Source: an uncultured Candidatus Saccharibacteria bacterium (GTDB lineage Bacteria; Patescibacteriota; Minisyncoccia; Phycocordibacterales; DATDWN01). From it: DNA of 44,439 nt. The notes beneath the pieces are model-generated. The model saw only the letters and a program-made list of their open reading frames with translations. It ran no database searches and had not been told where the DNA came from. A program made the translations under genes and the position numbers. Shown piece after piece: positions 1,075-36,196 of this stretch (its first letter is position 1; every line of letters starts with the position of its first letter). Location: NCBI GenBank assembly GCA_964424295.1, contig CAYRHZ010000001.1, positions 1-44,439 of the forward strand, given 5' to 3'.

Positions 1075-1105
1075 AAAAACCCCGCGCCACATGGACGCGG
1101 GGTTT
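1075..1105 (-). terminator. GC-rich hairpin terminator downstream of the GNAT gene
   Basis: CCCCGCG (1080-1086) pairs with CGCGGGG (1096-1102). On the minus-strand RNA the hairpin is followed by UUUUUCUUG. Confidence 0.7.
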
Positions 1106-1124
1106 CCAAAGAACACAAATGAGC

Positions 1125-1703
1125 CTACTTCAAAGAACCCGTCTTCTGGTAGTTCTCCCAGACCGGAATCCACTCCTCACGAAGAAGACCAAGCTCAATC
1201 CTGTCCCAGTACTTGCCGTGACGGAACATCGCCTGACGCTTCTTACCTTCGATCTGGTAGCCACAACGCAGGCTGTAGTTAAGACTGCGCTCGTTGAAGG
1301 CGATGACGTCGGAGTTAATCCGACGAAGGTTCAGAGTATTGAAGGCGTAGTCGAGAAGCGCCATCTTGGCATCACTCCCGAACCCCTTGCCCCAGTACTC
1401 CTTGTCACCAATGAGAGCCCCCGTGGTCGCCACCCTGTTGACCCAGTCAATCCTGTGAAGGCCCATAAGGCCGATTGCCTTGCCCTCCTTGGTCACGATG
1501 ACCAGGACGATGTTGTCCTTGTCCTTGCACAGCCCGTCCACCCAGTCTTCTTCAAACTTCTGTGTGGTAGGAACCACACTTGAGACGAACTGTCTGACTT
1601 CTGGATCGTTGATCCAGACAAGTATTTTCGGAATATCCTCCCGAGAAACTGGTCGAAGATTTGTTTTGTTGCCCAACAGGAACACAATGTTTTCGGTCGA
1701 CAT
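1125..1703 (-). CDS. GNAT family N-acetyltransferase (RimJ/RimL-like), GC-rich
   Basis: 192-aa protein with a typical GNAT core (…GLMGLHRIDWVNRVATTGALIGDKEYWGKGFGSDAKMALLDYAF…). An AGGAGG site (plus-strand cctcct at 1712-1717) lies 8 nt upstream of the ATG. Codons are visibly rich in G/C at the third position, unlike the neighbours. Confidence 0.85.
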   Translation of the reverse strand: MSTENIVFLLGNKTNLRPVSREDIPKILVWINDPEVRQFVSSVVPTTQKFEEDWVDGLCKDKDNIVLVIVTKEGKAIGLMGLHRIDWVNRVATTGALIGDKEYWGKGFGSDAKMALLDYAFNTLNLRRINSDVIAFNERSLNYSLRCGYQIEGKKRQAMFRHGKYWDRIELGLLREEWIPVWENYQKTGSLK

Positions 1704-1717
1704 GGTGAGAGCCTCCT

Positions 1718-1754
1718 AAAGAACGAAAACTGCCTCAGCGTTATGCTGAGGCAG
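1718..1754 (-). terminator. intrinsic-terminator-like hairpin directly abutting the GNAT ribosome-binding site (possible attenuator)
   Basis: 10-bp perfect stem CTGCCTCAGC (1730-1739) / GCTGAGGCAG (1745-1754). On the minus-strand RNA it is followed by UUUUCGUUCUUU, which runs straight into AGGAGG. Confidence 0.55.
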
Positions 1755-1779
1755 TTTATGGAACCCATTTAATGAAAGT

Positions 1780-1878
1780 TTAAATAAGAGATACATAGAT
1801 TGCACCAGCAGAAATAGCTTCGCAAGAAACGAAGGTATTTAGTCCCATATTTTTTTGTGCAAATCTATGATTATTCAT
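1780..1878 (-). CDS. possible 32-aa leader or small peptide (MNNHRFAQKNMGLNTFVSCEAISAGAIYVSLI)
   Basis: Hand-translated ATG..TAA ORF in AT-rich sequence just upstream of the 1730-1754 hairpin. No clear RBS. Below the ORF-track cutoff. Confidence 0.15.
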   Translation of the reverse strand: MNNHRFAQKNMGLNTFVSCEAISAGAIYVSLI

Positions 1879-1939
1879 AGTGTTTATATATTAACATGTT
1901 TAAAATTAAAGTCAAATAGTTAAAATTTTGTATATGGTT

Positions 1940-1970
1940 AATCCCGCCGCAGTTCGCCCGCGACGGGATT
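1940..1970 (-). terminator. GC-rich hairpin downstream of the 170-aa ORF
   Basis: AATCCCG (1940-1946) pairs with CGGGATT (1964-1970) around a GC-rich loop. There is no clear U-tract. Confidence 0.35.
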
Positions 1971-2003
1971 GTTTCCAAAGTACAAAACTTGCAAAGAGCG
2001 AGG

Positions 2004-2516
2004 TTACTGACCGGCCTTCTTGCCGGTCATCAGAGCGTCAGGGGTGTTGCGACCCCTTGAGGGTAGTTGTGAACGAAGTGCTGCTCTGAATACGTTTGCA
2101 CCTCGAGGCACAGTGGCTCCGCAGACCTGCTTAGTTTGAACGGCAGGCATAGGAGGTCGCACCACTTTCGGTCTCTGGTCGCCACTCAGGATTCGATCTT
2201 TCTTCCTGAGAAAGCAGACGGCCCTGCGACCGCAAAGAACCATGACGATTCCGTACCCTCGGTAGAACCTCGTGTCCCCCTTGAACCGGTCATCGAACTT
2301 CTGCTTGACGTGCGAGGCAACCGGCATGTATTCCTTCTCCGCCAAAAAGCTAGCAAAGTAGGCGTACATGTCCTTAGGTGGGCGACTATTCATGTCGCAA
2401 ATCACCCGAGTGAACTGATCCAGGGTGCCGTTTTGCTGACAGCACATCAGGATGTTCTGGTCGCACTCGCAGAGCTGTGTGAATTTAACACCCAACTCAT
2501 CTGCCATTCTCTTCAC
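2004..2516 (-). CDS. hypothetical protein, GC-rich orphan (170 aa, Cys-rich N-terminus, basic C-terminus)
   Basis: Long ORF in a GC-rich island. GTG start at 2516 with GAGGGAG immediately upstream; alternative ATG at 2507. No family recognised by eye. Confidence 0.6.
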   Translation of the reverse strand: MKRMADELGVKFTQLCECDQNILMCCQQNGTLDQFTRVICDMNSRPPKDMYAYFASFLAEKEYMPVASHVKQKFDDRFKGDTRFYRGYGIVMVLCGRRAVCFLRKKDRILSGDQRPKVVRPPMPAVQTKQVCGATVPRGANVFRAALRSQLPSRGRNTPDALMTGKKAGQ

Positions 2517-2527
2517 CGACTCCCTCT

Positions 2528-2583
2528 GTCACAGACCCTTCTGTGACTGAAAAATTGTACAATACTACCCAATTTTTGTCCAA
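2528..2583 (-). promoter_or_regulatory. promoter (TTGGAC-18-TACAAT) plus perfect palindrome at the predicted transcript start of the 170-aa ORF
   Basis: On the minus strand the -35 is TTGGAC (2578-2583) and the -10 is TACAAT (2554-2559). An inverted repeat GTCACAGA-ccct-TCTGTGAC (2528-2547) lies between the -10 and the RBS. Confidence 0.5.
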
Positions 2584-9652: not shown

Positions 9653-10930
9653 CTATCTACCCAATATGGCATCTAGAGTATTTTGTTTTACAACTATTCT
9701 TGCAGGAATGTAGCCGGCAAAAATTGTGGCAATAAGCAGAAGTCCGGCACGCATTAAGGTATTTGAATATTCTGCAACAAGTATTCCATCACTAAACGGG
9801 AAGTTAATCGGGTGCGCGTCAATATATGGAACAAGAAAACCATACAAAATGGCCAAACCTAGTAAAACGCCCATGGTTGCATAAAGTATTGATTGTAATA
9901 TGTATGAAAACTCAATTGCAGTAGAGTTTATTCCAATACCTTTTAAAATTCCAATAAATTTTCTTCGAGTAATTGCGTTGATGTATATAACGATAAATAT
10001 TGTAATTGAAGCAACCACAAGTCCAATGGAACCGATAGCATTTCCTAGCAAGTTGAATGTAGCCTGTATATCTTTTAGAAACTTTGGCAAAGCTTCTTCG
10101 ATAGTTTGAACTCGAGCACTTTCACCAACTCCAGAAGAAATTAGTGCTTGTTTTACAACCAATGAATCAACGCCATCATTTATCTTTATTGCAATCTCAT
10201 CTACATTATAGTCATTTCTGCCAATAAGTGGCCGAAGCACAGAGTCCAGAATTACAACTCGATCATCAAAAGCACCTTTTCCTTTAATAATTCCTTTAAC
10301 TGTAACTTCTTTTACATTTCCATTTACCTTAATTCGAACTCTCGAACCAACATCTACATTATCTAGCAAAAGCAAACCTGGGGCTTCAATAGGAAGGTAC
10401 TTTTTCAAAGTGTTTGCACCAAGTAAAATACTATCAGTATCCTCGACTGTCAGCATTGAACCTGCAATTATCATGGAACTAATATTTGTAGTTTCTTCTT
10501 CTTTAACAGGGTCAACACCAGTAAAAGATGCGTTAGCGATATTGGCATCTTCTGTAAAATCGATTCTTTCTTTATATGTACCCTCGACGGTTCCACCCTC
10601 AACATATCGAACAGAATAAACTTTTGTCCAAGGCATGTTCTTTACAATCTCCACAACACTTGGACTATTTTCAATGTAAGTTTTCTTTGGAAGAGTGGAA
10701 ATGAATATGTCTCCGGCATACTTTTCGCGAAAAAGGTCCGTAGAACTTTGAATCAGTCCAACGAGCACCCCTCGAACAACCACTAAGTTCAAGAAAGTAA
10801 GCATCATAATAAAAACAATAAGAGCGGTAGTCCCTATACTGCTTCCCCTTACTTGCCTATATGCGAGGAAAAAGCCGAGTTTTATTGAGGTTAAAAAGTT
10901 TTTAAACCTTTGAGCACGAGTAATTAACAT
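9653..10930 (-). CDS. ABC transporter permease, FtsX/MacB-like
   Basis: One N-terminal TM segment, a large extracytoplasmic domain, and three C-terminal TM segments (FtsX-like). Operon context with the ATPase. Confidence 0.8.
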   Translation of the reverse strand: MLITRAQRFKNFLTSIKLGFFLAYRQVRGSSIGTTALIVFIMMLTFLNLVVVRGVLVGLIQSSTDLFREKYAGDIFISTLPKKTYIENSPSVVEIVKNMPWTKVYSVRYVEGGTVEGTYKERIDFTEDANIANASFTGVDPVKEEETTNISSMIIAGSMLTVEDTDSILLGANTLKKYLPIEAPGLLLLDNVDVGSRVRIKVNGNVKEVTVKGIIKGKGAFDDRVVILDSVLRPLIGRNDYNVDEIAIKINDGVDSLVVKQALISSGVGESARVQTIEEALPKFLKDIQATFNLLGNAIGSIGLVVASITIFIVIYINAITRRKFIGILKGIGINSTAIEFSYILQSILYATMGVLLGLAILYGFLVPYIDAHPINFPFSDGILVAEYSNTLMRAGLLLIATIFAGYIPARIVVKQNTLDAILGR

Positions 10931-10971: not shown

Positions 10972-11379
10972 CTAATTTAACCCCTTACAATTACCTCCAG
11001 GAGTGAAACCAGCACTTTTTGCCTCAGCAATAGAGCCAAATTTAACTTGATTTTCTGGTTTTATTCTCTTAACAGTTCCGCACCATGGAAAATAGTACTT
11101 TTTGCCACTTTTAGAGCCTATAACTGGACCATCTGTTTTTATATCTGGAGTACTGGTCAAAACCTCTCCACCCTGCCCAAAGACAGTCTTTGGGGAACTT
11201 GTAGATGAGTTTATGGCTGTAGCCGTCAGGTTTTGGTTTGGATAACCTATATTTATTGGAGTTTTCTCATTATTTACAACTGAAAGTCTGCCTAAACTAA
11301 AGAAAATAACCGCTATCGACAATAGGAGTAATAAGCCATAAAAAGGCTTGATTTTTTCCAAGCTTTGATTTATACTCAT
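10972..11379 (-). CDS. membrane-anchored hypothetical protein with a C-terminal Cys-containing (Ada-Zn-binding-like) motif
   Basis: Trimmed to [27 protein letters not shown] (ATG at 11379), because the track ORF overlaps rpmA. The C-terminus reads [41 protein letters not shown]. Confidence 0.6.
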
Positions 11380-11401
11380 AAAACCTAATTTAACACACAA
11401 T

Positions 11402-11674
11402 ATGGCACATAAGAAATCCGCAGGTACATCAAAAAACGGTAGAGACTCAAATCCAAAATATCTTGGAGTTAAAATTACTGAAGGAGACAAAGCTATTGCT
11501 GGATCTATCTTGATAAGACAGCGAGGAACAGATGTTCTCCCTGGTAAAAATGTTGGTATGGGAAAGGATCACACTTTGTTTGCACTTACTCCGGGAACAG
11601 TAAAATTTGGAACTAAGAGAAAAATTCATTTCGATAACACTAGCCAAGTAAAGAAAATCGTCCACGTAATCTAA
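11402..11674 (+). CDS. rpmA: 50S ribosomal protein L27
   Basis: [24 protein letters not shown]… is a canonical L27 N-terminus. Confidence 0.95.
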
Positions 11675-11676
11675 AG

Positions 11677-11703
11677 AAAAAACCTCCAATTGGAGGTTTT
11701 TTC
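11677..11703 (+). terminator. rpmA intrinsic terminator
   Basis: ACCTCC-aatt-GGAGGT hairpin (11682-11697) followed by TTTTTT. Confidence 0.8.
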
Positions 11704-11707
11704 TTAA

Positions 11708-11735
11708 TTGATTTTTCTTAAAATTAATGTATAGT
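11708..11735 (+). promoter_or_regulatory. promoter TTGATT-16-TATAGT for the GC-rich 66-aa ORF
   Basis: -35 at 11708-11713 and -10 at 11730-11735. GGAGG at 11744-11748 lies 9 nt before the GTG at 11758. Confidence 0.5.
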
Positions 11736-11757
11736 TGTCCTTTGGAGGCACAAGCCT

Positions 11758-11958
11758 GTGAGTTACTACCGGCACGACGACACCCCAGTTCGATGGACCG
11801 ACCTTGCTATCAAGGTTCGTACCTGCCCCGACTGTGGCAACAGTTACACAGGAATAAGTCGGCACCACATAACGTGTCCAAAGAAGGAGGTCAAGAGAGT
11901 CGACGAAAAGAAACCTAGACCGGGAGGTGTAGGCAGTGACCTCATCTTCTTCGAATAG
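11758..11958 (+). CDS. hypothetical small protein (66 aa) with a CxxC…HHxxC zinc-knuckle-like motif, GC-rich
   Basis: GTG start with a good SD. The sequence is MSYYRHDDTPVRWTDLAIKVRTCPDCGNSYTGISRHHITCPKKEV…. The antisense 96-aa ORF has a TTG start, no SD and a low-complexity sequence. Confidence 0.5.
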   Translation: MSYYRHDDTPVRWTDLAIKVRTCPDCGNSYTGISRHHITCPKKEVKRVDEKKPRPGGVGSDLIFFE

Positions 11959-11969
11959 TTCCCCACCCG

Positions 11970-12000
11970 TCGCCCGAGGAAGACACACTTCCAAGGGCGA
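11970..12000 (+). terminator. GC-rich hairpin downstream of the 66-aa ORF
   Basis: TCGCCC…GGGCGA outer stem plus GGAAG/CTTCC inner stem with a 2x2 internal loop. The U-tract is weak. Confidence 0.35.
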
Positions 12001-12014
12001 TTCGTCATATATGA

Positions 12015-16622: not shown

Positions 16623-16650
16623 CGAGCCCGCCAATAAATCGGCGGGCTCG
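16623..16650. terminator. bidirectional GC-rich hairpin between dnaB and the convergent 58-aa ORF
   Basis: 10-bp perfect stem CGAGCCCGCC (16623-16632) / GGCGGGCTCG (16641-16650). Confidence 0.6.
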
Positions 16651-16661
16651 AGTCGAAAGGG

Positions 16662-16838
16662 CTACTTCAGATGCCGGGTCCCCAGAACTGCGTGAACGTA
16701 GACTGGTTCACCGTCGATGACCATCGTGCCCGAGGCGTACTCAGCGTCCCTCTGTCTCGGACGACGACGAGGTTTCGGTCGATCGGCCTTACGAACGTGC
16801 TTACTGCGACGCTTACCCCTGATCCTGCCTTCTGCCAT
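16662..16838 (-). CDS. hypothetical small basic protein (58 aa), GC-rich, absent from the ORF track
   Basis: Hand translation gives MAEGRIRGKRRSKHVRKADRPKPRRRPRQRDAEYASGTMVIDGEPVYVHAVLGTRHLK. AGGAGG (plus-strand cctcct at 16844-16849) lies 5 nt upstream of the ATG (16836-16838). A TATAAT (16862-16867, minus strand) lies further upstream. Confidence 0.55.
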   Translation of the reverse strand: MAEGRIRGKRRSKHVRKADRPKPRRRPRQRDAEYASGTMVIDGEPVYVHAVLGTRHLK

Positions 16839-16909
16839 CGGAACCTCCTAAGTGTTCTAAAATTATATTACATTAGAATATATAAATTTGGTATACTTAC
16901 GGAAATATC

Positions 16910-17560: not shown

Positions 17561-17566
17561 CATCTA

Positions 17567-17868: not shown

Positions 17869-17877
17869 AAAAAACAA

Positions 17878-19953: not shown

Positions 19954-19977
19954 TCTCAGCAGAAAGTGAGGTTGTTG

Positions 19978-20220
19978 ATGGATACTATGCCAGTCATGGT
20001 GGAGCAAGTCAGGGCACGTTACAAAGCCCTGAAAGATGCCCACCCGGGCAAACCAGTCGACTTCCCTGCTGTATTAAGAGAAGTCGTAAGCGGAAACGGT
20101 TTCCGCGGAGAAGACTTCGGAAGGAAGGTCAAGGAGCTGTCCGCGGCGTACGCGACAGACAAAAAGAAAAGGCAAAGAGCGCTTTGGAATAGAAATTGGG
20201 GCCGAACGGCTCCACAGTAA
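19978..20220 (+). CDS. hypothetical small protein (80 aa), GC-rich orphan
   Basis: ATG at 19978 with GAGG at 19968-19971. The sequence is MDTMPVMVEQVRARYKALKDAHPGKPVDFPAVLREVVSGNGFRGEDFGRKVKELSAAYATDKKKRQRALWNRNWGRTAPQ. No family recognised. Confidence 0.55.
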   Translation: MDTMPVMVEQVRARYKALKDAHPGKPVDFPAVLREVVSGNGFRGEDFGRKVKELSAAYATDKKKRQRALWNRNWGRTAPQ

Positions 20221-20228
20221 CCCGTCAC

Positions 20229-20264
20229 GGGCCCAGCACAGATGTTGCCGGGCCCTATCGTTTT
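20229..20264 (+). terminator. possible GC-rich hairpin terminator after the 80-aa ORF
   Basis: GGGCCC (20229-20234) pairs with GGGCCC (20250-20255) around a long loop, followed by TATCGTTTT. Confidence 0.3.
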
Positions 20265-20286: not shown

Positions 20287-23028
20287 CTACTTCTTATACT
20301 TCGCTAAAATCTCTGCTTCAATCTCTGCTCTATCTCCTCCATACGTCAAATACGAAAGTTGTTTCAAATTTTCAGCAATAGCAGTATTGCCAGCCGGAGG
20401 AAATGACTCTTTTATGTTAAAAGCTTTTTGCGGTCTACCTCCTACCAACATTTTCACATACGCATTCAAGTTATCTATTCCCATAATATCTTTTGCTGTA
20501 AATACTGGAGAAAATTGTTTTTCCAAAAATTCTGCGTCTTCGGACGAAACTCTGAAAGAAACCATGGAACCTACGTTTCCGAAAACTGCATCACGAATCT
20601 TGTCTTGTAGTTGCGCAATAAACTGATGGGCAACATTTAGAGAAAGTTTGTACTTTCTTGCCTCTGACAAAATAGTAGAAATAGAATCAGTTGTAATATT
20701 CTGGAATTCATCAATATACAAGTAAAAAGGTGGGAAATCCTTGCCAACTAGATCTACTCTGGAAAGAGCTGCCATAAGTATTTTTCCAACAAGAATAAGA
20801 CCGATGAGGTTTGCGTTTATGTCTCCCAGTCTTCCTTTTGAAAGATTCACGAGAAGTATTTTTTTGTCGTCCATTATCTTTCTAAAGTCAAAGGAAGATT
20901 TTTCTTGCGCAATGATGGGACGCATTATGTCGTTTGCCAAAAATACATCAAACTTTGATGTAATGTACGGCACTATATTTGCGAGGCTTGCCTCCCCACC
21001 TGCTTTTTCTGCAATTTCTTTCCAGAACTGAACAACTACAGGGTTTTTACAGTTAGCAATTTTCAGATCTCGAAAAGCCTTGTTGGTCATCACCCGACTA
21101 ACATCTAGCAATGTGCATCCAGTATCAGGATCTTCAATAACAAGCATTGTTGCGTTTCTAAAGTATTGTTCAAACATTGGTCCCAGAGACTCTGGTACTC
21201 CTCCATAAAGCTTTTGGAAAATACTAAAAAGCTCATTAACAACAAAAGTTTTCTGCTCTGGCTTGGACCTATCATACTCGAGCATATTTAGTGCCATAGG
21301 TCTCTCTGTGTGGCTTGGGTCAAAATAAATAACATCTTTAAATCTTTCCTTTGGAATATTGGCCAAAATACTTTCTATGTCTGTTCCGTGTGGGTCAATA
21401 AAACAGCAACCGTTCCCCCTTTTAATATCTTGAATAATTAAGTTTTTCAAAAAAACAGTCTTTCCTGTTCCCGTCTGTCCTATCACGTAAAGGTGTCGCA
21501 ACCTGTCTTCATCCTGCATGTATATTGGAGTCTCAACATTTCGAAAATTATTTACTCCCAAAAGTGTGCCTTCCCTGCCCATATCGGCTGGAGCAGGTGC
21601 AGAAATAGCTTGAGACTGTTTTAGTTGAGGAGTCGCATTAAGTGCGGCATTTTGAAAATGCATCATTGTTGTGATCTCGTGTAGGTTCAAAGGTAGCACT
21701 TCCTCTTCATTGTAGTTTCTAAAAGAATAATCTCTGAACATTTTCTGCAACTTTGCCTTCTCAAGCCTCTTTGGCTTAAGCCCGTTTGCATTTGTGTCTG
21801 TAAATTGATTAAAACCAGATTCCATTGTTTGCAATATTTTTTCAGCTTCAAGTCTACTTTTAGCAGAAGCAATAAGACGTATATTTGTAGCGACAATAGA
21901 ACTCCCTAATTTTTGTTTGATCTTTCCAATAGCCTCAGTGTCTATTGGTTTTTTATCTTCACCTTCCTTTGGTGCTGACCTAAAGAAAGATTTTAGTTCT
22001 TTGCCAAAACCGCCCGCTATTGTGCTTGGAATATCTATAGCGTCTTTGACTGCCTTACCTTTTTCTATCTGCTCTATCGCGTACTTGTAGTTATCCATAA
22101 AGTAGTTTCCCTTAGGAGCAAAAACTATTTGCATTCCAGCACCCTCACCATCTTTTTGTATTTTAGAAAAGCTATTTAGTATCACGTTCATTGGGTCGTG
22201 GTCAAAATTCTCGTATGTTTTCAGTTGGTATATTGGGTTTATAGTTGACTCTAGGTAAGACCCGACTGAAACCCCATCAGTATTAAAAATATTATAATCA
22301 GAAGAAACCTCTGTCAGAACAGCATTGTGAAAAACAGAGATCATCTGCTTTTCAAAAAGAGTTTTGTGAGCGTTAGGCACTGCTACATAGAAAATAAACT
22401 GCTCACTACCGTTTGAATTTGCAATTTCAAGTACAAGATAATTCTTCTTGTAGTCTGAACTACTATCTTTGGAAACAATAGAAAGCATTCCAGACAAGAA
22501 CTGCTCCATACTCGAAATAAGTTCCTTTAGAGGTTTATTTTTTTCTGTGTCATTTTTTCCTTCTGGCAAAACCACTTCATACAGAGCCATATCAAGCCCT
22601 CTAAATTCCTCTGTAGAGATATTCACGCCTTTTGCCTCATACCCCTGTTTCAAATACTGCACAAGGAAACGATGAAAATCATCTTCTAGATGGGGGTCAT
22701 TCAGGTTATATAAAACCGATAGCGCATTTTTAATACCCTTTGCTTTCAAAATATTCAAAAGTTCTTCCACTTTGTCATCATGAGTTTCAGGTTCTAGATT
22801 TAGAGAAATAGACTCCATATCCACCTTGGATAAAGCTAGGGTGTCATGTAGCACTTCTTTTTGTAAAACACTGCTGTATTCCTCTATTTCCTTTTGAACA
22901 ACATCATCAATTTTATAATCCGCCTTGCTTTCACGAAGATGTCTTTCTGTTCTAGATATTTGTTCTCGAAGGAAAGCAATTTCTTCTTCGGGTGTACTAA
23001 ATTTCAAATTGGGAGTTTTCTCCATCAC
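20287..23028 (-). CDS. large P-loop ATPase, TraD/VirD4/HerA-like C-terminal half with an unassigned ~480-aa N-terminal region
   Basis: Walker A GQTGTGKT, FIDPHG, and Walker B-like FYLYIDEFQN in the C-terminal half. The N-terminal half has no motif I recognise. No obvious TM segments. Confidence 0.7.
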   Translation of the reverse strand: MMEKTPNLKFSTPEEEIAFLREQISRTERHLRESKADYKIDDVVQKEIEEYSSVLQKEVLHDTLALSKVDMESISLNLEPETHDDKVEELLNILKAKGIKNALSVLYNLNDPHLEDDFHRFLVQYLKQGYEAKGVNISTEEFRGLDMALYEVVLPEGKNDTEKNKPLKELISSMEQFLSGMLSIVSKDSSSDYKKNYLVLEIANSNGSEQFIFYVAVPNAHKTLFEKQMISVFHNAVLTEVSSDYNIFNTDGVSVGSYLESTINPIYQLKTYENFDHDPMNVILNSFSKIQKDGEGAGMQIVFAPKGNYFMDNYKYAIEQIEKGKAVKDAIDIPSTIAGGFGKELKSFFRSAPKEGEDKKPIDTEAIGKIKQKLGSSIVATNIRLIASAKSRLEAEKILQTMESGFNQFTDTNANGLKPKRLEKAKLQKMFRDYSFRNYNEEEVLPLNLHEITTMMHFQNAALNATPQLKQSQAISAPAPADMGREGTLLGVNNFRNVETPIYMQDEDRLRHLYVIGQTGTGKTVFLKNLIIQDIKRGNGCCFIDPHGTDIESILANIPKERFKDVIYFDPSHTERPMALNMLEYDRSKPEQKTFVVNELFSIFQKLYGGVPESLGPMFEQYFRNATMLVIEDPDTGCTLLDVSRVMTNKAFRDLKIANCKNPVVVQFWKEIAEKAGGEASLANIVPYITSKFDVFLANDIMRPIIAQEKSSFDFRKIMDDKKILLVNLSKGRLGDINANLIGLILVGKILMAALSRVDLVGKDFPPFYLYIDEFQNITTDSISTILSEARKYKLSLNVAHQFIAQLQDKIRDAVFGNVGSMVSFRVSSEDAEFLEKQFSPVFTAKDIMGIDNLNAYVKMLVGGRPQKAFNIKESFPPAGNTAIAENLKQLSYLTYGGDRAEIEAEILAKYKK

Positions 23029-23680: not shown

Positions 23681-24037
23681 TTAAATTAGTCCTCTAAAAT
23701 GGTGCACTAGAACAAAAACACCCACAGCTACAGCACCTAGTCCTCCAAGGAACACAAAAGAAGCAGACATGTCTTTAATTTTTTCAATCACAGGGTCTTC
23801 GTTTGGTTCTATTTTATTACAAATATCCTCAACTATTGTGTTGATTATTTCTAAAACCAGAACCAAAGTAACAGCAAACACAAACAGACTGGCCTCAACA
23901 AAAGTGAATTCAAAAAAGTACACACAGGAAAGAGCGGCTACGGCCACAACCACCTCAATACGAAAATTCAGCTCCTCCTTCCATGTAGTGTGTAGCCCCC
24001 TGAGAGCGTATACAAATGATTTTATTATTCTTAACAT
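23681..24037 (-). CDS. dgkA: diacylglycerol kinase family membrane protein
   Basis: 118-aa protein with three TM segments (MLRIIKSFVYALRGLHTTWKEELNFRIE…EIINTIVEDICN…). Trimmed from the 251-aa track ORF, whose N-terminus is read-through of the GC-rich island. Confidence 0.8.
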   Translation of the reverse strand: MLRIIKSFVYALRGLHTTWKEELNFRIEVVVAVAALSCVYFFEFTFVEASLFVFAVTLVLVLEIINTIVEDICNKIEPNEDPVIEKIKDMSASFVFLGGLGAVAVGVFVLVHHFRGLI

Positions 24038-24070
24038 GAATATCAATATATCATAATTTTGCCAAAGTTT

Positions 24071-24093
24071 TAGCCGGGCACTTTGCCCGGCTA
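24071..24093 (-). terminator. GC-rich hairpin downstream of the 102-aa ORF
   Basis: TAGCCGGGC-acttt-GCCCGGCTA, a 9-bp perfect stem. There is no U-tract on the minus-strand RNA. Confidence 0.4.
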
Positions 24094-24108
24094 GACCTCC
24101 TCCACCGC

Positions 24109-24417
24109 TTATTCTGCGGTGAAATCGGTGAACTGCATCCACATGGGGAAGGGCTCGCCCTCCCACTGTACGCGGATTATGTTGGTGTGTCTCCCTTCTT
24201 CGCCGGCGCGACAGAACTCGACGATCGTCCCAGCCCGACCCTGTTCGATGAGCGGGTACTTGCCGGAAGAGACGACGCCCTGGTGAAGCTCGAGCTTCTT
24301 CGTGTAGACGATGATGGCGTTGATCTTCCCGTCCTTTTCGAGGTATGCGGGACCTCCCGGATCGGGAACAGTCGCTGACTTCGGAACGTGTGCGACGCGA
24401 ATGGACATTCCGGGCAT
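24109..24417 (-). CDS. hypothetical protein (102 aa), strongly GC-rich orphan
   Basis: ATG with AGGAG (plus-strand ctcct at 24424-24428) 6 nt upstream. The sequence is MPGMSIRVAHVPKSATVPDPGGPAYLEKDGKINAIIVYTKKLELHQGVVSSGKYPLIEQGRAGTIVEFCRAGEEGRHTNIIRVQWEGEPFPMWMQFTDFTAE. Hand count gives 39/60 G+C at 24181-24240. Confidence 0.65.
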   Translation of the reverse strand: MPGMSIRVAHVPKSATVPDPGGPAYLEKDGKINAIIVYTKKLELHQGVVSSGKYPLIEQGRAGTIVEFCRAGEEGRHTNIIRVQWEGEPFPMWMQFTDFTAE

Positions 24418-24437
24418 TGGAGGCTCCTCTGCACAAT

Positions 24438-24465
24438 ATTATACCTGAATATCTAGATTAGTCAA
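24438..24465 (-). promoter_or_regulatory. consensus promoter TTGACT-16-TATAAT for the 102-aa ORF
   Basis: On the minus strand the -35 is at 24460-24465 and the -10 at 24438-24443. It lies only 9 nt from the 3' end of tRNA-Glu. Confidence 0.6.
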
Positions 24466-24473
24466 TGTAAATG

Positions 24474-24545
24474 TGACCTTACCGGGAATCGAACCCGGGT
24501 TTAAGCCTTGAGAAGGCTTCGTCCTAGCCGCTAGACGATAAGGCC
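24474..24545 (-). tRNA. tRNA-Glu (anticodon CUC)
   Basis: Hand-folded cloverleaf: acceptor GGCCUUA/UAAGGUC, D stem GUCU/GGAC, anticodon stem AAGCC/GGCUU with loop UUCUCAA, and T arm CCGGG-UUCGAUU-CCCGG. CCA is not encoded. Confidence 0.9.
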
Positions 24546-28114: not shown

Positions 28115-28145
28115 TATTCTGCGGAAGCCTGGCTTCCGCACGATA
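28115..28145. repeat. 31-nt repeat copy A containing a 9-bp-stem palindrome
   Basis: TATTCTGCGGAAGCCTGGCTTCCGCACGATA is identical to 29781-29811. The internal hairpin is TGCGGAAGC-ctg-GCTTCCGCA. Confidence 0.9.
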
Positions 28146-28269: not shown

Positions 28270-29727
28270 TTACTCACTTTTAGGGCGCATTAGTGGAAAA
28301 GTTTGCAGCTCTCTCAGCGGTTTATCCGCCAATATCGCAAAAAGTCTCTCTCCGAAACCAAATCCACAAGTAGGAGGCATACCGTACTCCAACATTTCCA
28401 CGAATTCATCGTCTGGCATCATTGCTTCTGTATCCCCTCCTTCTATAAGTTTTTGTTGTGTATCAAATCTTTCCTTCTGGTCTATAGGGTCATTTAATTC
28501 TGAATATCCGTTTCCGACTTCAAGTCCAGCAATTAGAGGCTGGAATCTTTGAACGGTTTCTGTTCCTAAATTTTTCTTTGCAAGTGGTGCAACAAGAGCA
28601 GGATGGTTTACTAGAAATGCTGGACCTGAAATATTTTTTCTACAATACTTCCAAAGTGTGTCTGTGAGTCTCTCGCGGTTTTCTCCATCAAATTTCACAC
28701 CCAACTCTTTTAGTTTTTCCATTATCTCATCATCTGTAGCTGAATTTAAATCAATACCAGTTTGTTTTTTCACCTCTTCACTATAGTCCACTTCAGGCCA
28801 TGCTTCACCAAGATCAAAAGTGTGACCTCGTGAAGTAAATTTTGTAGTACCAAAAACACTTTGAGCGATTTCAATATACATTTCTCTAACGAGTTTCATT
28901 CCATCGTTATAATCTGCAAATGACCAGTAAAACTCCATGTTAGTAAACTCTTGTGCATGGTCTGGAGAAGTACCTTCATTTCTATATGCACGTCCTATTT
29001 CAAAAGTTTTAGGAAAACCTCCCGCCATAAGTCTTTTCTGCCATAATTCTCCAATAGATATACGCAAATAAACATCTAGGTCATAGTCGTTGTGGTGTGT
29101 TTTAAATGGTGTTGCCTCTGCTCCACCAGTTGTTGTTTCGAGTGTAGGTGTTTCTACCTCCAAGAATCCATTGTTTTTCATAAATTCACGAGTAGCATCC
29201 CAGAACTTTGATTTCTTAACAATCAAATCTCGGAGTTCATCATTCATTAGGAAATCCAAATATCGTTTTCTGAATCTTTCATCTAGGTCTGTAAGCCCAT
29301 GCCATTTTTCAGGAAGAGGAAGTAGTGACTTTCCTGCCATCTGCCAAACTCTAGTATCTATACTTTGCTCACCAGTTTTAGAAAGCATTGCTTTACCAGA
29401 AACTGAAATAAAATCTCCAATGTCTACAGTGTCTGTAAAAAGTTTAAAGTCTTCTTCACTTAAAGTATCTTTTTTTATTATTGCTTGAACTTTTTCTGTC
29501 CCATCAAAAAGCACAGCAAATAGTATTGCTCCCTGCCCTCGCAAAGCCATAACTCTACCAGCAACAGAAACTTCGTTGTCTGCTTTTATATGCTCGTCAA
29601 AATTCTTCTTTAAAAAACCAATAGGAAAATCCCTAGGAACTTTTGCTGGGTATGGGTTTATGCCCTTATCCTTTAGTATTTGGAGTTTTGACAGTCTTCC
29701 CTCCCGTATCTCTTCTAATGATGCCAT
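28270..29727 (-). CDS. lysS: lysyl-tRNA synthetase (class II)
   Basis: OB-fold N-terminal domain plus class II motifs (…FEIGRAYRNEG…, …GFGFGERL…). Confidence 0.94.
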   Translation of the reverse strand: MASLEEIREGRLSKLQILKDKGINPYPAKVPRDFPIGFLKKNFDEHIKADNEVSVAGRVMALRGQGAILFAVLFDGTEKVQAIIKKDTLSEEDFKLFTDTVDIGDFISVSGKAMLSKTGEQSIDTRVWQMAGKSLLPLPEKWHGLTDLDERFRKRYLDFLMNDELRDLIVKKSKFWDATREFMKNNGFLEVETPTLETTTGGAEATPFKTHHNDYDLDVYLRISIGELWQKRLMAGGFPKTFEIGRAYRNEGTSPDHAQEFTNMEFYWSFADYNDGMKLVREMYIEIAQSVFGTTKFTSRGHTFDLGEAWPEVDYSEEVKKQTGIDLNSATDDEIMEKLKELGVKFDGENRERLTDTLWKYCRKNISGPAFLVNHPALVAPLAKKNLGTETVQRFQPLIAGLEVGNGYSELNDPIDQKERFDTQQKLIEGGDTEAMMPDDEFVEMLEYGMPPTCGFGFGERLFAILADKPLRELQTFPLMRPKSE

Positions 29728-29780: not shown

Positions 29781-29811
29781 TATTCTGCGGAAGCCTGGCT
29801 TCCGCACGATA
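29781..29811. repeat. 31-nt repeat copy B containing a 9-bp-stem palindrome
   Basis: Identical to 28115-28145 in the same orientation. It lies between the greA stop and the lysS promoter. Confidence 0.9.
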
Positions 29812-32368: not shown

Positions 32369-33157
32369 TTATTTCAATATAATAACGTGCTTGGTTTCAA
32401 GAGCATTTGTTGGTATTCGAAGGTAAACCTTCTTAAAGGAGCTTTGGGAGCTACTATCTACAAAGTAAACGGTGGCTAAAACTGAGCTATTTATGCCTGG
32501 ATATAGAAAAATGTCTCCCCATAGTATATCTGCTTCCTTTGGCACTTCTACTTGAAAATTGGACCCCCCAGAACCCTCCAATACAAAAGATGCTCCTGTT
32601 CTAGAAGAAATAGCTTCTTGTTTTTGATCACCGCTTGAAAAAAGCTTAACTGTAGATGTTTTACTTGATACCGATGTAATGTAGCCCAAGATTATATTAT
32701 CTGAAGCATAAACTCTGTCGCCGACACTAACACCTGAATTTTCGCTCGCATCAATTATAAAAGTATCAAACGGAGATTGTGGGGGTTTAGACAAAACACC
32801 TGCTATTATTTTTGTTCCACGCAGACTTGCCCCAATTTGCAACTTCAGATCCTCGTTTTCTTTTAACAGAATATCATAATCTATTTTATTTAGCCGAAGG
32901 GTTGCAACTTCTGCTGATAGCCTGTCGTTTTCTTTAATCAGATTTGTTTTGAAGCTAAAAAAGTCAGTGACAAAATAAGTAAGATTAAAAACTTTATCCC
33001 TTAAAAACCACAAAGGCTTCATTCCGTTCTGAGAAGTAGACCTTAGAAAATTTGGAAACGTTAAAGAAATAAGCAGGAGCAAGAGAAACAGTCCGGAACC
33101 TAATATTATTCTTGTATTATAATTCCTTTTAGGTTTATTTTTTAGGAGGAAGCTCAT
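32369..33157 (-). CDS. mreC: rod shape-determining protein MreC
   Basis: TM anchor, coiled coil (LIKENDRLSAEVATLRL…) and beta-rich C-terminus. It overlaps the end of mreB. Confidence 0.8.
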   Translation of the reverse strand: MSFLLKNKPKRNYNTRIILGSGLFLLLLLISLTFPNFLRSTSQNGMKPLWFLRDKVFNLTYFVTDFFSFKTNLIKENDRLSAEVATLRLNKIDYDILLKENEDLKLQIGASLRGTKIIAGVLSKPPQSPFDTFIIDASENSGVSVGDRVYASDNIILGYITSVSSKTSTVKLFSSGDQKQEAISSRTGASFVLEGSGGSNFQVEVPKEADILWGDIFLYPGINSSVLATVYFVDSSSQSSFKKVYLRIPTNALETKHVIILK

Positions 33158-34196
33158 CTTTGTTTGTAATTAAAATATCTTTATACATTTCCATATTTTC
33201 CAAAATAACACCTGTCCCTCTGCAAACTGCAGTTAGTGGGTCTGGAGCAACATGCACTGGGATTTTTGTATACTCTGAAATTATCTCGGCTAGTCCGTTT
33301 ATTAAGGCGCCACCACCTGCAAGAAAAATTCCTTTTTGCATAATATCGGACAAAACTTCTGGTGGGGTTGTTTCCAAAACTTCTCTTACTCCATCTACCA
33401 AAGTATTTATAGACTGAGAAATAGCTTCTCTAATATCTGAATCCGTTATTATCACCTCTCTAGGCAGTCCAGTGATTAAATCTCTACCTTTTATCGAAGC
33501 CTCCAGCGGAACGTCTCCTGGTAAAACTGCACCAATGTTTATTTTAATATCTTCAGCTGTTTTTTCACCAATCAAAATTTTAAACTCACTTCTCATATAA
33601 GAAATAATGTCGTTGTTTAGTTTGTCTCCAGCAACTCTCAAATTTTTTGAACGAACAACTCCACCCAAAGATATCACTGCAATATCTGTAGTTCCTCCAC
33701 CAATATCAACTATCATATTTCCAGTTGGCTCCAAAACAGGAAGTCGCATACCAATAGCCGCCGCCATAGGCTCTTCTACTATATGCACTTCAGATGCTCC
33801 TGCATTTTTTGTAGCATCACGCACAGCTCTAATCTCTACGTTTGTGATTCCAGACGGAACACCCACAACAACACGTGGGCCCAAAAGTTTTGTATTTCCT
33901 TTTTGAGCTTTATTTAAAAGATAAGTAATCATCTCTTCTGTAACTTCAAAGTCAGATATAACCCCATCTACAAGAGGCCTCACTGCCACAATGTGTAGTG
34001 GGGTTCTACCAAGCATCTGTTTAGCATCCTTACCCACAGCAACCACCTGACCAGTTTTTTGGTTAATAGCCACAACTGAAGGTTCGTTTAGAACAATGCC
34101 CTTACCGTTTAGGTAAACTAGGGTGTTTGCGGTACCCAGATCTATCCCAATGTCGTTGGATATGTACCTCTTGAATTGTTCAAAGTTTTTAATCAT
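33135..34196 (-). CDS. mreB: rod shape-determining protein MreB
   Basis: DIGIDLGTANTLVY…IVDIGGGTTDIAVISLGG…FLAGGGALINGL, the actin-like ATPase motifs. Confidence 0.95.
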   Translation of the reverse strand: MIKNFEQFKRYISNDIGIDLGTANTLVYLNGKGIVLNEPSVVAINQKTGQVVAVGKDAKQMLGRTPLHIVAVRPLVDGVISDFEVTEEMITYLLNKAQKGNTKLLGPRVVVGVPSGITNVEIRAVRDATKNAGASEVHIVEEPMAAAIGMRLPVLEPTGNMIVDIGGGTTDIAVISLGGVVRSKNLRVAGDKLNNDIISYMRSEFKILIGEKTAEDIKINIGAVLPGDVPLEASIKGRDLITGLPREVIITDSDIREAISQSINTLVDGVREVLETTPPEVLSDIMQKGIFLAGGGALINGLAEIISEYTKIPVHVAPDPLTAVCRGTGVILENMEMYKDILITNKDELPPKK

Positions 34197-34392: not shown

Positions 34393-34403
34393 ACATAACA
34401 CTT

Positions 34404-35651
34404 TTATTTCAATGCACTTACCGCCTCATCTTCTGACATCATCTCCGATTCTGCTTTTGTTCTGAATTTTACTTCTACTTTATCTTGCTCAACTGTTTTA
34501 TCACTAACCACAAATCGAACTGGAATTCCAATAAGATCTGAGTCAGCAAACTTTTCTCCTGGGCGTAGATCCCTATCATCGTAAAGAACTTCTACTCCGG
34601 CTTTCGTTAGTCTGTCATATAAATTGTCAGCGTATTCTACAGTTTTATCATTTACTCCTAGTCGGACCAAGTGAACGTGGAAAGGAGAAACTTCTTTTGG
34701 CCAGATAATTCCCTTGTCATCTGCAAGAACTTCTATAATTGTTCCCAAAAGTCGAGTTGGGCCTATACCGTAACTACCCATAACAACGGGGTGTTCATTG
34801 CCTTCTTCATCTTTATACTTTAAACCTATGGCATCTGAAAAACGCGTACCTAGATGAAAAATATTTCCAACCTCTACCGCTTTTTTCTCCACCAATTCAC
34901 TTTTTTCTATGCCTAGTTTTTTAAGATTCTCTTCAGTATAAACCTCCCTATTTAAAGCCATTTTCTTACCTTCATGGACGTAAATAACATCTTCACCAGA
35001 TTCAGTAAGAGTCTGGAACTCTTCTGAAAAATCAGCAAAAATACCTCCGTCAGCAAAGGTAACATAAGTTTTGTCACCAATACCAAGTCTTTGGAAAATT
35101 TTTATATATGCGTCTCTTATTTTGTTGTAGTCTTCTGTGTGTCCGTCATTGTCTTTTGAAAAAGAATACATATCCTTCATCATAAACTCCTTTCCACGCA
35201 TAACACCGCTTTTCGCCCGAAGTTCGTTTCTAAATTTATTCTGAAACTGATATGCAAGAACTGGTAAATCTCTATATGAAGAAATATGTTCGCTCATTAT
35301 TCTTGTGAGTGGTTCTTCGTGTGTAATGCCAAGACCTGTCTCTCCACCACTTTTTAGCTCTGTTTTAAACCAATTATCAACTTTTGCATCATCCCATCTG
35401 TCTGTTCTAGACCAAAGTTCTTTGTCCTGAAGTGCTGACATCAGTAGCTCCTGCCCACCAACAGCATTCATTTCTTCTCTAATTATCTGAACTATATTAT
35501 TTAGTGTTCTAAGACCTAATGGTAAATACGAATAAACCCCCGCAAGTTCTTTGTGTACGTATCCCGCACGAATAAGGTACTCTGCATTTTTTGAAGTCTC
35601 GTCTGCAGGCGCCTCTTTTCTTGTCTTTGTAAAAAGTTGTGTTTGTCGCAT
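34404..35651 (-). CDS. proS: prolyl-tRNA synthetase (bacterial type, lacking the INS editing domain)
   Basis: MRQTQLFTKTRKEAPADETSKNAEYLIRAGYVH… plus class II motifs and a C-terminal anticodon-binding domain. Trimmed from the 507-aa track ORF to the ATG at 35651. Only ~45 aa lie where INS normally sits. Confidence 0.9.
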   Translation of the reverse strand: MRQTQLFTKTRKEAPADETSKNAEYLIRAGYVHKELAGVYSYLPLGLRTLNNIVQIIREEMNAVGGQELLMSALQDKELWSRTDRWDDAKVDNWFKTELKSGGETGLGITHEEPLTRIMSEHISSYRDLPVLAYQFQNKFRNELRAKSGVMRGKEFMMKDMYSFSKDNDGHTEDYNKIRDAYIKIFQRLGIGDKTYVTFADGGIFADFSEEFQTLTESGEDVIYVHEGKKMALNREVYTEENLKKLGIEKSELVEKKAVEVGNIFHLGTRFSDAIGLKYKDEEGNEHPVVMGSYGIGPTRLLGTIIEVLADDKGIIWPKEVSPFHVHLVRLGVNDKTVEYADNLYDRLTKAGVEVLYDDRDLRPGEKFADSDLIGIPVRFVVSDKTVEQDKVEVKFRTKAESEMMSEDEAVSALK

Positions 35652-35694
35652 AAAAGTTTTGTAGCTAAATAGTATCCTAAAAGTATATTTTGAG

Positions 35695-35875
35695 CAAAAA
35701 GAAACCCGCGCATAGTTCGCGCGGGCAGATTGTGGCAGGAAGAGGAGCAATCGGTTGTTCGGTGCACCGTGATGGCGTTGGGACTGAGTGCCCCACTGCA
35801 AGAGGTCCAGTATTGGACGTTTAGTGGTCAGTACCAAGGTTAACGGCAAGTCAGCCGACACCCCTCCGCCCGCCA
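35695..35875 (-). promoter_or_regulatory. structured GC-rich leader with an intrinsic terminator upstream of proS (candidate attenuator or riboswitch-like element)
   Basis: 12-bp long-range helix GGCGGGCGGAGG (plus 35863-35874) / CCUCUUCCUGCC (plus 35734-35745), with G-U pairs valid only on the minus strand. Terminator CCCGCGC/GCGCGGG (35705-35725) is followed by UUUCUUUUU, about 45 nt before the proS ATG. Confidence 0.55.
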
Positions 35876-35881
35876 AGAAAA

Positions 35882-35909
35882 ACTCTACTACTTTATAATT
35901 TTTTTGCAA
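35882..35909 (-). promoter_or_regulatory. promoter TTGCAA-16-TAGAGT driving the proS leader
   Basis: On the minus strand the -35 is at 35904-35909 and the -10 at 35882-35887. It directly abuts the terminator of the upstream RNA. Confidence 0.45.
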
Positions 35910-36150
35910 GAAAAAAGGCCGCTCCACTCGGAGGGGCCTGCACGAAACTCGTGCTTTGGGGGAACGTACAACGGACGAACAGGGGGGACTGCGGGGACTT
36001 TGGGAGTCGAGGCCTCATCACCAGGATAAACCGAACCCGGTGTCGGTAGTCCTGGGCTTTACCTCTAACCCTGGTACTGGAGAAGTCGCTGGAAGCGCAC
36101 TTCTGCAATATACAGAGCTGCAAAGTCCGGCACCATCCCCCCTGTTTTCC
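35910..36150 (-). ncRNA. unclassified structured RNA (~240 nt), GC-rich
   Basis: No credible ORF. 11-bp perfect long-range helix (plus 36136-36146 / 35978-35988) and a nested 8-bp helix (36121-36128 / 35995-36002). Internal hairpins include CCAGGA…UCCUGG enclosing ACCGA/UCGGU. Terminator AGGCCGCTCC-actc-GGAGGGGCCT (35916-35939) is followed by UUUUUU on the minus strand. The ends are approximate. Confidence 0.6.
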
Positions 36151-36156
36151 ATCTAT

Positions 36157-36185
36157 GTTATAGCACGAATACAATAAAAAAGCAA
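36157..36185 (-). promoter_or_regulatory. promoter TTGCTT-17-TATAAC for the 35910-36150 RNA
   Basis: On the minus strand the -35 is at 36180-36185 and the -10 at 36157-36162. Confidence 0.45.
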
Positions 36186-36196
36186 ATGTGGCAGAC

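Follow-up and report, generated by a model that had tools for sequence, protein, structure and literature searches.

Nine GC-rich segments between core genes of an AT-rich Parcubacteria chromosome are probably resident accessory transcription units

Introduction

Why should short stretches of DNA lying in the spacers between core genes be far richer in guanine and cytosine (GC) than the chromosome that carries them? The question is raised by contig CAYRHZ010000001.1 (assembly GCA_964424295.1), of which the 44,439 nucleotides analysed here (positions 1 to 44,439 of the forward strand) are referred to as the window. Nine GC-rich segments, or islands, interrupt its AT-rich backbone of conserved genes: six carry open reading frames (ORFs; O1 to O6) and three carry putative small RNAs (I5, I8 and I9). 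An initial annotation, made by reading the letters, had described these segments and offered four explanations for them, namely foreign genes taken up repeatedly from a GC-rich host or phage, selection for transcripts that are GC-rich or structured, mobile cassettes of one family, and an assembly or engineering artefact.

On balance, the nine islands are probably independent resident accessory transcription units of a Candidatus Zambryskibacteria chromosome (Parcubacteria, Candidate Phyla Radiation, CPR). They share one anatomy, they are restricted to the lineage, and most of them keep their position among relatives. In the scheme that we propose, six small protein genes and three small-RNA genes would each be served by a sigma-70-type promoter-like site in AT-rich DNA, with a very short leader, a strong Shine-Dalgarno (SD) sequence in the coding ones and a GC-rich hairpin at the end. 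The spacers between core genes would act throughout the clade as hot spots, either empty or bearing a unit, and units would be gained, lost, moved and swapped by recombination between relatives, without dedicated insertion machinery. The GC excess would then be a stable property of the units and not the fading signature of a foreign source, with third codon positions at about 0.6-0.7 GC as compared to 0.29 in the core.

Composition and anatomy of the nine units

A 200-nt composition profile gave a backbone of about 0.30-0.42 GC and peaks of 0.53-0.62 where the initial annotation had placed its nine segments, with a discontinuity at every one of them, and its manual counts of G+C (39/60, 15/60 and 25/60) proved exact. 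GC is 0.525-0.602 within the segments, 0.20-0.46 in the 100 nt that adjoin each of them on both sides, and 0.363 in the window outside the segments; given a homogeneous composition of 0.363, a 200-nt stretch at 0.53 GC or above is expected with P ~1e-6. Only one further minor peak was present (41371-41500, GC 0.52), and it lies within a core gene. At the codon level, GC at third positions (GC3) is 0.58-0.74 in the six island ORFs vs. 0.22-0.35 in 23 backbone genes (core about 0.29), and the island ORFs, O4 excepted, show periodicity of the coding type. The nine units, with the signals that can be read in the sequence, are as follows.

1075-1760, minus strand: unit 1, GNAT acetyltransferase gene O1 (coding sequence, CDS, 1125-1703, 192 aa); SD AGGAGG at 1712-1717, 5' leader hairpin at 1727-1757, intrinsic terminator at 1075-1102.
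1940-2582, minus strand: unit 2, orphan gene O2 (CDS 2004-2516, 170 aa from GTG, with an ATG at 2507); promoter TGGACA-17-TACAAT at 2554-2582, 5'-end hairpin at 2528-2547, 3' hairpin at 1940-1970.
11708-12001, plus strand: unit 3, orphan gene O3, 66 aa, zinc-ribbon-like (CDS 11758-11958, GTG start); promoter TTGATT-16-TATAGT at 11708-11735, SD GGAGG at 11744-11748, 3' hairpin at 11971-11999.
16624-16868, minus strand: unit 4, singleton ORF O4, 58 aa, very basic (CDS 16662-16838); SD AGGAGG at 16844-16849, -10 hexamer TATAAT at 16863-16868, 3' hairpin at 16624-16649, which is also just past the end of dnaB.
17533-17858, plus strand: unit 5, structured RNA I5, about 290 nt (~17568-17858); promoter TTGATT-16-TAGTAT at 17533-17560, terminator at 17813-17858.
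19925-20262, plus strand: unit 6, orphan gene O5, small helical basic protein (CDS 19966-20220); promoter TTGACT-17-TATAAT at 19925-19953, terminator hairpin at 20229-20255.
24072-24465, minus strand: unit 7, gene O6, small all-beta protein of 102 aa (CDS 24109-24417); promoter TTGACT-16-TATAAT at 24438-24465, SD GAGGAG, terminator at 24072-24092.
35695-35909, minus strand: unit 8, RNA I8, about 180 nt (~35695-35874); promoter TTGCAA-16-TAGAGT at 35882-35909, terminator at 35704-35726.
35912-36185, minus strand: unit 9, structured RNA I9, about 240 nt (~35912-36150); promoter TTGCTT-17-TATAAC at 36157-36185 with TG directly before the -10 hexamer, terminator at ~35915-35941.

The seven promoter hexamer pairs, the SD sequences and the 3' hairpins quoted in the initial annotation are all readable in the sequence. 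For unit 1 no promoter could be pinned down, and for unit 4 only the -10 hexamer could. The promoters of O5 and O6 each match the consensus at 11 of 12 positions and are two of the three matches of this kind, the best score, found when about 40 kb (positions 1-39800) were scanned; they count as signals of strong expression. Promoter-like sites numbered 71, vs. 53 expected by shuffling, and since such sites are common in AT-rich DNA the weaker matches mean little alone. In the coding units the closing hairpins measure 21-31 nt. As short perfect GC stems that mostly have a T run after them, the hairpins resemble ordinary intrinsic terminators. The earlier observation that the jump in GC starts roughly at the transcript start and not at the promoter follows almost automatically from this anatomy, because the leaders are of about 20-30 nt and consist largely of the SD sequence, and the 3' ends are terminator stems.

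The segments had been described as lying between conserved genes. Pfam matches in the flanks bear this out: class Ib aminoacyl-tRNA synthetase (aaRS; TrpS-type), methyltransferase, L27, L9, DnaB, L21, YqeY, a TraG/VirD4-like ATPase, class II aaRS (ProS-type) and RseP/M50; RecR was assigned via its relatives, DgkA via called genes and tRNA-Glu(CUC) by tRNA detection. Mechanical ORF calls for two flanking genes of the minus strand, dgkA (23681-24436) and proS (34404-35927), extend upstream into the islands and are over-extended because GC-rich sequence has few stop codons; in one public contig, dgkA as called overlaps O6. In such genomes, automatic annotation will probably make core genes too long and overlook the small units.

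Probable residency of the units in the lineage

Relatives were sampled as 46 loci retrieved with RecR, from metagenome-assembled genomes (MAGs) labelled Candidatus Zambryskibacteria, Paceibacterota or Parcubacteria (related loci are cited below by L numbers). RecR identity to the closer relatives is 70-83%, which places the window in a CPR chromosome, and gene order is conserved across the set. Counterparts of O2, O3, O5, O6, I5 and I9 were found in the same spacers of relatives, and nearly all of them are still GC-rich while being more diverged than the surrounding core genes: GC3 of diverged orthologues is 0.55-0.69, with 0.52 in one GNAT copy and 0.41-0.43 in one O6 orthologue. The order methyltransferase, O2, second GC-rich gene, trpS recurs in three other assemblies (independent Logan and JGI data), and there the DNA alignment continues without a break from the core flanks into the GC-rich genes and across the AT-rich spacer that holds the promoter. 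The initial annotation had held that conservation of the segments at identical loci with the same composition across a clade, and membership in well-known families, would make them ordinary native genes and standard RNAs. Most units are indeed at identical loci with similar composition clade-wide, and only the GNAT gene comes from a well-known family.

The direction of change within the islands was read from the single usable triplet (window, L050 and the outgroup L048); among other triplets the closest pair of loci is 89% identical in protein, and synonymous sites are presumably saturated. Polarised changes in O1 and O2 together comprised 31 from AT to GC and 37 from GC to AT (20 vs. 29 at third positions). 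Decay under the bias of the backbone predicts about 78-82% of changes from GC to AT, from which the observed balance differs with p = 2e-5. The composition of the islands is therefore at or near equilibrium. A recently acquired islet drifting to host composition was rejected, as the relatives lie within the same lineage and the flux is not towards host composition. The evidence says no to a foreign source, at least a recent one, and the islands appear from these comparisons to be long-standing residents of the lineage.

Spacer occupancy and turnover of units

When the same spacers were compared among related genomes, occupancy proved to vary. The recR/rplU spacer measures 18-1833 bp across 40 genomes, and the other island-bearing spacers are either 5-100 bp long and AT-rich or 300-1500 bp long at 0.45-0.54 GC. 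Units also move and replace one another: the GNAT gene adjoins trpS in the window and lies downstream of recR in L004, L014 and L030, and in L049 a different GC-rich gene replaces it. Divergence between the window and L050 is a mosaic (3.3% for O2, 16.6% for the GNAT gene). Turnover appears to proceed via recombination between relatives.

In other genomes the recR/rplU spacer holds, in the place of I5, several unrelated small helical proteins, some of only moderate GC (L003 1558-1802, L033 10610-10866, L007 4119-4420, L002 7042-7314, L004 10635-10856 and L010 10786-11254); those of L003 and L033 form a pair ending in ...QWHA.

The six protein-coding units

O1 is the only island protein of a recognised family, matching Pfam Acetyltransf_3 (PF13302) with E 4e-24 and 86.2 bits vs. 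a cut-off of 25.4, over profile positions 3-138 of 138. Although similar to SpeG and PseH, it scores under the curated NCBIfam equivalog cut-offs for both (PseH 70.4 vs. 93.1, SpeG 53.7 vs. 218), and its identification as either the spermidine acetyltransferase SpeG or PseH was accordingly rejected. In PHROGs it found a generic acetyltransferase match only. Homologues at E<1e-20 numbered 559, and all those with a named source belong to Parcubacteria or Patescibacteria, including Yanofsky-, Ryan- and Taylorbacteria. GC3 of O1 is 0.69. The hairpin of its leader is 84-88% conserved in L004, L014 and L030, vs. 68-71% identity for the coding sequence, and may be an attenuator or regulatory leader. 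This terminator-like hairpin (L004 ~11056-11112, L014 ~11400-11449, L030 ~10810-10859) moves with the gene to the other locus.

The remaining five proteins, O2 to O6, had been reported to match nothing recognisable, and none of them has a family in Pfam, PHROGs, PADLOC or NCBIfam; sequence searches of the PDB with the orphans gave none either. A search of 5.8 billion proteins gave just three homologues of O2, each placed in the same locus between the methyltransferase gene and trpS with one further gene on the trpS side, and the GC3 of O2 is 0.64-0.66 in all four copies. Its C-terminal third (2004-2180) holds a conserved motif, DQRP..PPMPAV.TKQV...AALRSQLP..GR.TPDA, rich in proline and arginine and predicted to be unstructured, which looks like a conserved linear interaction motif; the AlphaFold model of the protein is unusable (predicted local distance difference test, pLDDT, 44). 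O3 shares the motifs CxxC...H..C and a C-terminal P.G..SD with ORFs of the rpmA/rplI spacer in L022 (phmmer E 0.004) and L009 (only E 0.015, with a family profile), and GC3 is 0.60-0.62 in all three copies.

O4 is the least certain coding unit, its coding status resting only on a consensus SD sequence and the spacing of this to the ATG. It lacks codon periodicity (GC at first, second and third positions, 0.66, 0.51 and 0.61), its sole database match is an identical sequence in Logan and ENA contigs, and no relative was found among the 46 related loci.

O5 is predicted to have 84 aa from GTG or 80 aa from an ATG at 19978. Its relatives occupy the same yqeY/ATPase spacer in L009, L016, L031 and L035 (first-pass phmmer E 1e-4 to 5e-3), and these copies have 0.52-0.54 GC. 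O6 gave nine matches at E<=0.001 among 1.84 billion representative proteins, two of which are long multidomain proteins and look spurious. Two relatives, 40% and 37% identical, both lie directly upstream of dgkA and have a GC3 of 0.63 and 0.41. The AlphaFold model of O6 (pLDDT 76) is all-beta, with an SH3/Tudor/KOW-like barrel, and its fold relatives in the PDB were only generic SH3/Tudor/KOW/BAH barrels, none better than E 0.05. A tRNA-Glu gene with anticodon CUC, which reads GAG, lies directly upstream of the O6 unit on the same strand (24473-24545, minus), and the share of GAG among glutamate codons is 0.53 in the island genes vs. 0.35 in the backbone.

The three RNA units

I5 folds with a z-score of -7.6. 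In L018 and L026 the same recR/rplU spacer contains homologues of it, in which a 5' hairpin of 24 bp is conserved and 28 of the 61 predicted pairs are preserved via changes on both sides. I9 has a folding z-score of -5.95, and its spacer, rseP/proS, holds a single RNA of 179-212 nt in each of four metagenome contigs (L056-L059). All I9 copies have a TG-extended -10 hexamer (TGCTATAAAT in L057-L059, TGCTATAACAT in the window and TGTTATATAAT in L056). Their closing helix, 5' GGAAnCGG/CCGnUUCC 3', is paired in 40 of 40 cells, with six of the eight pairs varying on both sides; this covariation, in helix strands extracted by hand, was matched by none of 500 shuffles. A single-stranded C-rich motif, CCCCACA, precedes the terminator of I9. 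I8 is the least supported among the three RNAs, with a folding z-score of only -2.5 and a similar promoter and RNA start (GGCTGACTT.GCC) in L059 only.

Searches against Rfam (4227 families, Rfam 15) at the gathering score returned only two tRNAs in the window and only tRNAs in nine related loci. With the threshold relaxed to E<=10, the best E-values for I5, I8 and I9 were 0.43 or worse, with scores at most half the gathering score, and the relatives that carry homologous RNAs had no Rfam match either. I5 and I9 may thus be regarded as candidate RNA families absent from Rfam.

How general the pattern is

A crude ORF census was made over 37 related loci, in which an ORF counted as conserved when present in more than three other loci. 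GC3 of at least 0.5 was found in one of 416 conserved ORFs as compared to 102 of 338 poorly conserved ones, mostly short; 101 of those 102 also have GC3 above the GC of second positions, and their median length is 84 aa. The poorly conserved set probably includes some spurious frames that fall within RNA islands. When the ten largest GC-rich genes of relatives were compared with Pfam, one proved to be a family 18 glycosyl hydrolase and the other nine had no family. The same pattern was seen in dozens of related MAGs. GC-rich genes (GC 0.53-0.63) without assigned function also stand beside AT-rich genes in L063 (1287-1994), L049 (1989-2588) and L048 (1874-2329), so that the two-compartment composition extends beyond the loci studied. 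In the literature on GC-rich islands and small genes in Parcubacteria and the CPR, no description of such a pattern was found.

What maintains the GC excess

Among the possible causes, we place selection at the level of the transcript or its translation foremost, followed by an unsampled donor pool and then by biased gene conversion. We tentatively propose that the GC excess is kept by selection on the transcript, an idea for which the odds are still somewhat against. In the RNAs such selection would act on secondary structure; in the messenger RNAs (mRNAs), taken to be strongly expressed and monocistronic, it would act on the choice of codons and on transcript stability. The selection for GC-rich or structured transcripts considered in the initial annotation remains viable, and for the three RNAs it is the natural explanation; the fold z-scores of the coding units are mixed. 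Codon usage in the islands is strongly skewed (TAC 21 vs. TAT 0, CAC 12 vs. CAT 1, TTC 21 vs. TTT 4, AAG 0.77 of lysine codons, A-ending codons avoided), and 82% of two-fold codons end in C, above the prediction from about 58% GC at four-fold sites. Since this C-ending excess goes beyond four-fold GC, selection on codons is suggested. It is possible, if rather doubtful, that the whole accessory class is held at about 55% GC in a 36% GC genome by a force bounded by the transcript, each unit standing under a strong promoter; the force might lie in long-lived nuclease-resistant messages, or in a separate codon regime tied to particular tRNAs.

Several observations weigh against stable residency or against selection on the transcript. 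The ribosomal protein genes of the window (L27, L9 and L21) have an ordinary GC3 (0.29-0.34 for L9 and L21), and their two-fold NNY codons are only mildly shifted to C (26 C vs. 33 T). Fold z-scores of the coding sequences are -4.6 for O2, -4.25 for O5, -1.8 for O1, -0.3 for O3, -0.2 for O6 and +1.75 for O4. The observed/expected ratio of CpG is 1.01 in the coding islands vs. 0.66 in the backbone; an undepleted CpG could reflect a different mutational history, with arginine-rich proteins as a confounding factor. The GNAT family of O1 has genome-typical GC in Yanofsky- and Ryanbacteria, so that the GC excess is specific to the lineage of the window, and the gene may have been transferred from a GC-richer Parcubacterium. 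The substitution test draws on 68 polarised changes in a single triplet whose outgroup is 26% divergent, and O4 and I8 have little or no comparative support.

Narrower mechanisms were also tried and rejected. Ordinary translational selection on highly expressed genes fits poorly, as the ribosomal protein genes do not share the bias, and uniformly hyper-structured mRNAs would not give strong fold z-scores in O2 and O5 only. Transcripts purged of a cleavage motif of a ribonuclease toxin were considered, and no 3- or 4-mer is missing from the island transcripts, which show only a general depletion of TA. Adenine-specific mutagenesis, as caused by diversity-generating retroelements, does not apply, because the sense strands are not selectively depleted in A.

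Alternative explanations

Continuing import from an unsampled pool of about 55% GC (phage, plasmid, host or a GC-richer CPR relative) is unlikely. Donated small genes would land in permissive spacers beside AT-rich promoter-like DNA, and replacement would outpace the decay of their composition. Sharp edges, codon usage and a dinucleotide signature unlike those of the backbone (with CpG undepleted), variable occupancy of the spacers, replacement of units, mosaic divergence and a GNAT gene compositionally ordinary in other Parcubacteria are all as such import would leave them. No relatives of O2, O3, O5 and O6 were found, however, outside AT-rich Zambryskibacteria-type contexts (for O2, O5 and O6, the protein sets of 5.8 and 1.84 billion, IMG/VR and GenBank phages), and phages carry no relative in IMG/VR (O1, O2, O5 and O6 scanned) or among GenBank phages (tblastn with O2 and O6). 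Moreover, counterparts in the same spacer are more, not less, diverged than the flanking core genes, substitutions in the islands are near balance, and there is no integrase, no att-like repeat and no common end. The repeated acquisition from a GC-rich host or phage first suggested for these segments hence finds no support, the GNAT gene being Parcubacteria-wide, the orphans confined to the lineage, the composition near equilibrium and phage relatives absent.

GC-biased gene conversion would make the spacers recombination hot spots in which heteroduplex repair favouring G and C raises the equilibrium GC. Recombination at these loci is evident from mosaic divergence, relocation and replacement; by our own calculation, a modest population-scaled bias of about 1.5 would be enough to take GC3 from 0.29 to 0.65, and the ends of core genes beside islands are slightly GC-richer than the remainder of the same genes (GC3 0.33 vs. 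0.27). Against this, a stretch of at most 150 nt is enough for GC3 to drop from about 0.65 to about 0.33. The promoter spacer of 160 nt that separates O2 from O1 lies within a region exchanged as a block and yet keeps a GC content near 30%; conversion tracts should ignore the edges of transcripts. The flanking core genes, which homologous exchange necessarily crosses, are not GC-rich either. Because the edges are sharp and the O2-O1 promoter spacer is AT-rich, biased conversion is disfavoured as the main cause, and we consider it quite improbable.

That the units form one family of small mobile cassettes, inserted by a cryptic mechanism and similar to integron cassettes or miniature transposable elements, is largely refuted and now seems very improbable. 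Such a family would fit single-gene units that end in a hairpin, the variable occupancy of the same spacers and the presence of the GNAT unit at two different loci. Yet the hairpins pass for ordinary intrinsic terminators, most units are old residents of one spacer, and the ends of the units have no sequence, repeat or motif in common. No direct repeats flanking or linking the islands, target duplications or common end motif were found, no similarity was detected when the islands were compared with one another, and the window contains no recombinase or integrase; the absence of integrase, terminal inverted repeats and target duplications noted in the initial annotation is thus borne out within the window. 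A transposable element, miniature element or insertion sequence was rejected on the same grounds (no flanking or linking repeats, islands mutually dissimilar). Relocation and replacement by recombination are nonetheless seen.

An assembly chimera or engineered construct, suggested by nothing except abrupt compositional steps and a textbook layout of promoter, SD sequence, ORF and terminator, is refuted and its probability is practically nil, as the pattern recurs in the related MAGs and independent Logan, JGI and ENA assemblies contain the same junctions: a 1948-bp Logan contig is identical across O6 and its flanks including the junctions, JGI and Logan contigs span O2 and the GNAT gene, and ENA and Logan contigs contain O4.

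Comparison with known systems

The described systems that come closest are phage morons. These additional genes stand between conserved genes of a phage, each with its own promoter and terminator, and differ from their neighbours in GC content (PMC3594210). The units most resemble them in having one gene each, their own promoter and terminator, a place between syntenic genes, presence/absence variation, a deviant composition (here 0.525-0.60 vs. 0.363) and no dedicated mobility gene. The units described here differ in that they lie in a cellular chromosome among genes for aaRS, ribosomal proteins, DnaB, RecR and RseP and not in a prophage, in that three of the nine encode RNAs, and in that they are mostly conserved in position across species with a stable composition, whereas the GC content of morons is read as recent transfer.

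Bacterial ORFans are likewise short, fast-evolving and narrowly distributed, and they are AT-richer than their genome, with the lowest GC of first and third codon positions (PMC3514957, citing Daubin and Ochman 2004). The units share with them short length (median 84 aa for the GC-rich class over the 37 loci), narrow distribution, faster divergence than the core and the lack of a family, whereas the sign of the compositional difference is reversed (GC3 0.58-0.74 vs. 0.29).

The likeness of I5, I8 and I9 is to other RNA genes. Structured noncoding RNA genes stand out as GC-rich peaks in AT-rich genomes, which is the basis of GC-based RNA gene finders. The three RNAs are GC-rich and bounded by promoter and terminator, and I5 and I9 fold far better than shuffled sequences, with compensatory changes; unlike such genes they have no Rfam match, and this class does not cover the six protein units. 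Integron cassettes are promoterless, arrayed and end in attC sites of 57-141 bp with conserved core motifs. Like these, and like isolated attC sites, the units hold a single gene, carry a terminal hairpin and vary in content between genomes, whereas they have promoter-like sites, are dispersed, possess hairpins without a common motif and are accompanied by no integrase in the window.

Other features of the window

Two hairpins flanked by A runs and T runs on both sides, AAAAAACCTCCAATTGGAGGTTTTTT (11674-11705) and ACCTCCGGATGGAGGT (17877-17892), look like bidirectional terminators. The former lies in the rpmA/rplI spacer beside the promoter of unit 3 and the latter in the recR/rplU spacer just past the terminator of unit 5; hairpins of a similar kind, AACCTCC....GGAGGTT, occur at the same place in L018 and L006. 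The 913-aa protein encoded at 20287-23028 (minus strand) has weak matches to TraG/VirD4, the coupling protein of type IV secretion, and is recorded as DUF8128 in one relative; its position is conserved across relatives, and it belongs to the core and not to a mobile element.

A 31-nt palindromic sequence, TATTCTGCGGAAGCCTGGCTTCCGCACGATA, has identical copies at 28115-28145 and 29781-29811, which bracket a gene of 485 aa (28270-29727) and form the only exact long repeat in the window. Stretches of 72-75% identity (33655-33775/39047-39167 and 34000-34043/39389-39432) suggest that the genes at 33135-34196 and 38548-39561 are probably paralogues.

Significance

The islands show a compositional rule in reverse, in a group of bacteria that is poorly understood; they do not amount to a new kind of genetic system. 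The analysis yields two candidate RNA families (I5 and I9) and the small protein families of O2, O3, O5 and O6, all absent from current libraries. If the reading of the islands as stable residents is true, these genomes have a stable two-compartment composition, which would reverse the rule that new or lineage-restricted genes are AT-rich and drift to the composition of their host, and the stable GC excess of an accessory class offers a test case for the origin of intragenomic composition, whether by transcript selection, biased conversion or gene flow.

No function is assigned to about half of the genes of CPR bacteria, which are uncultured. Should the compositional signature prove a reliable mark of lineage-specific small genes and RNAs with strong promoters, candidates for host interaction or regulation could be found with it at little cost. 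Composition alone would then mark the genes likeliest to mediate the lifestyle of these uncultured bacteria.

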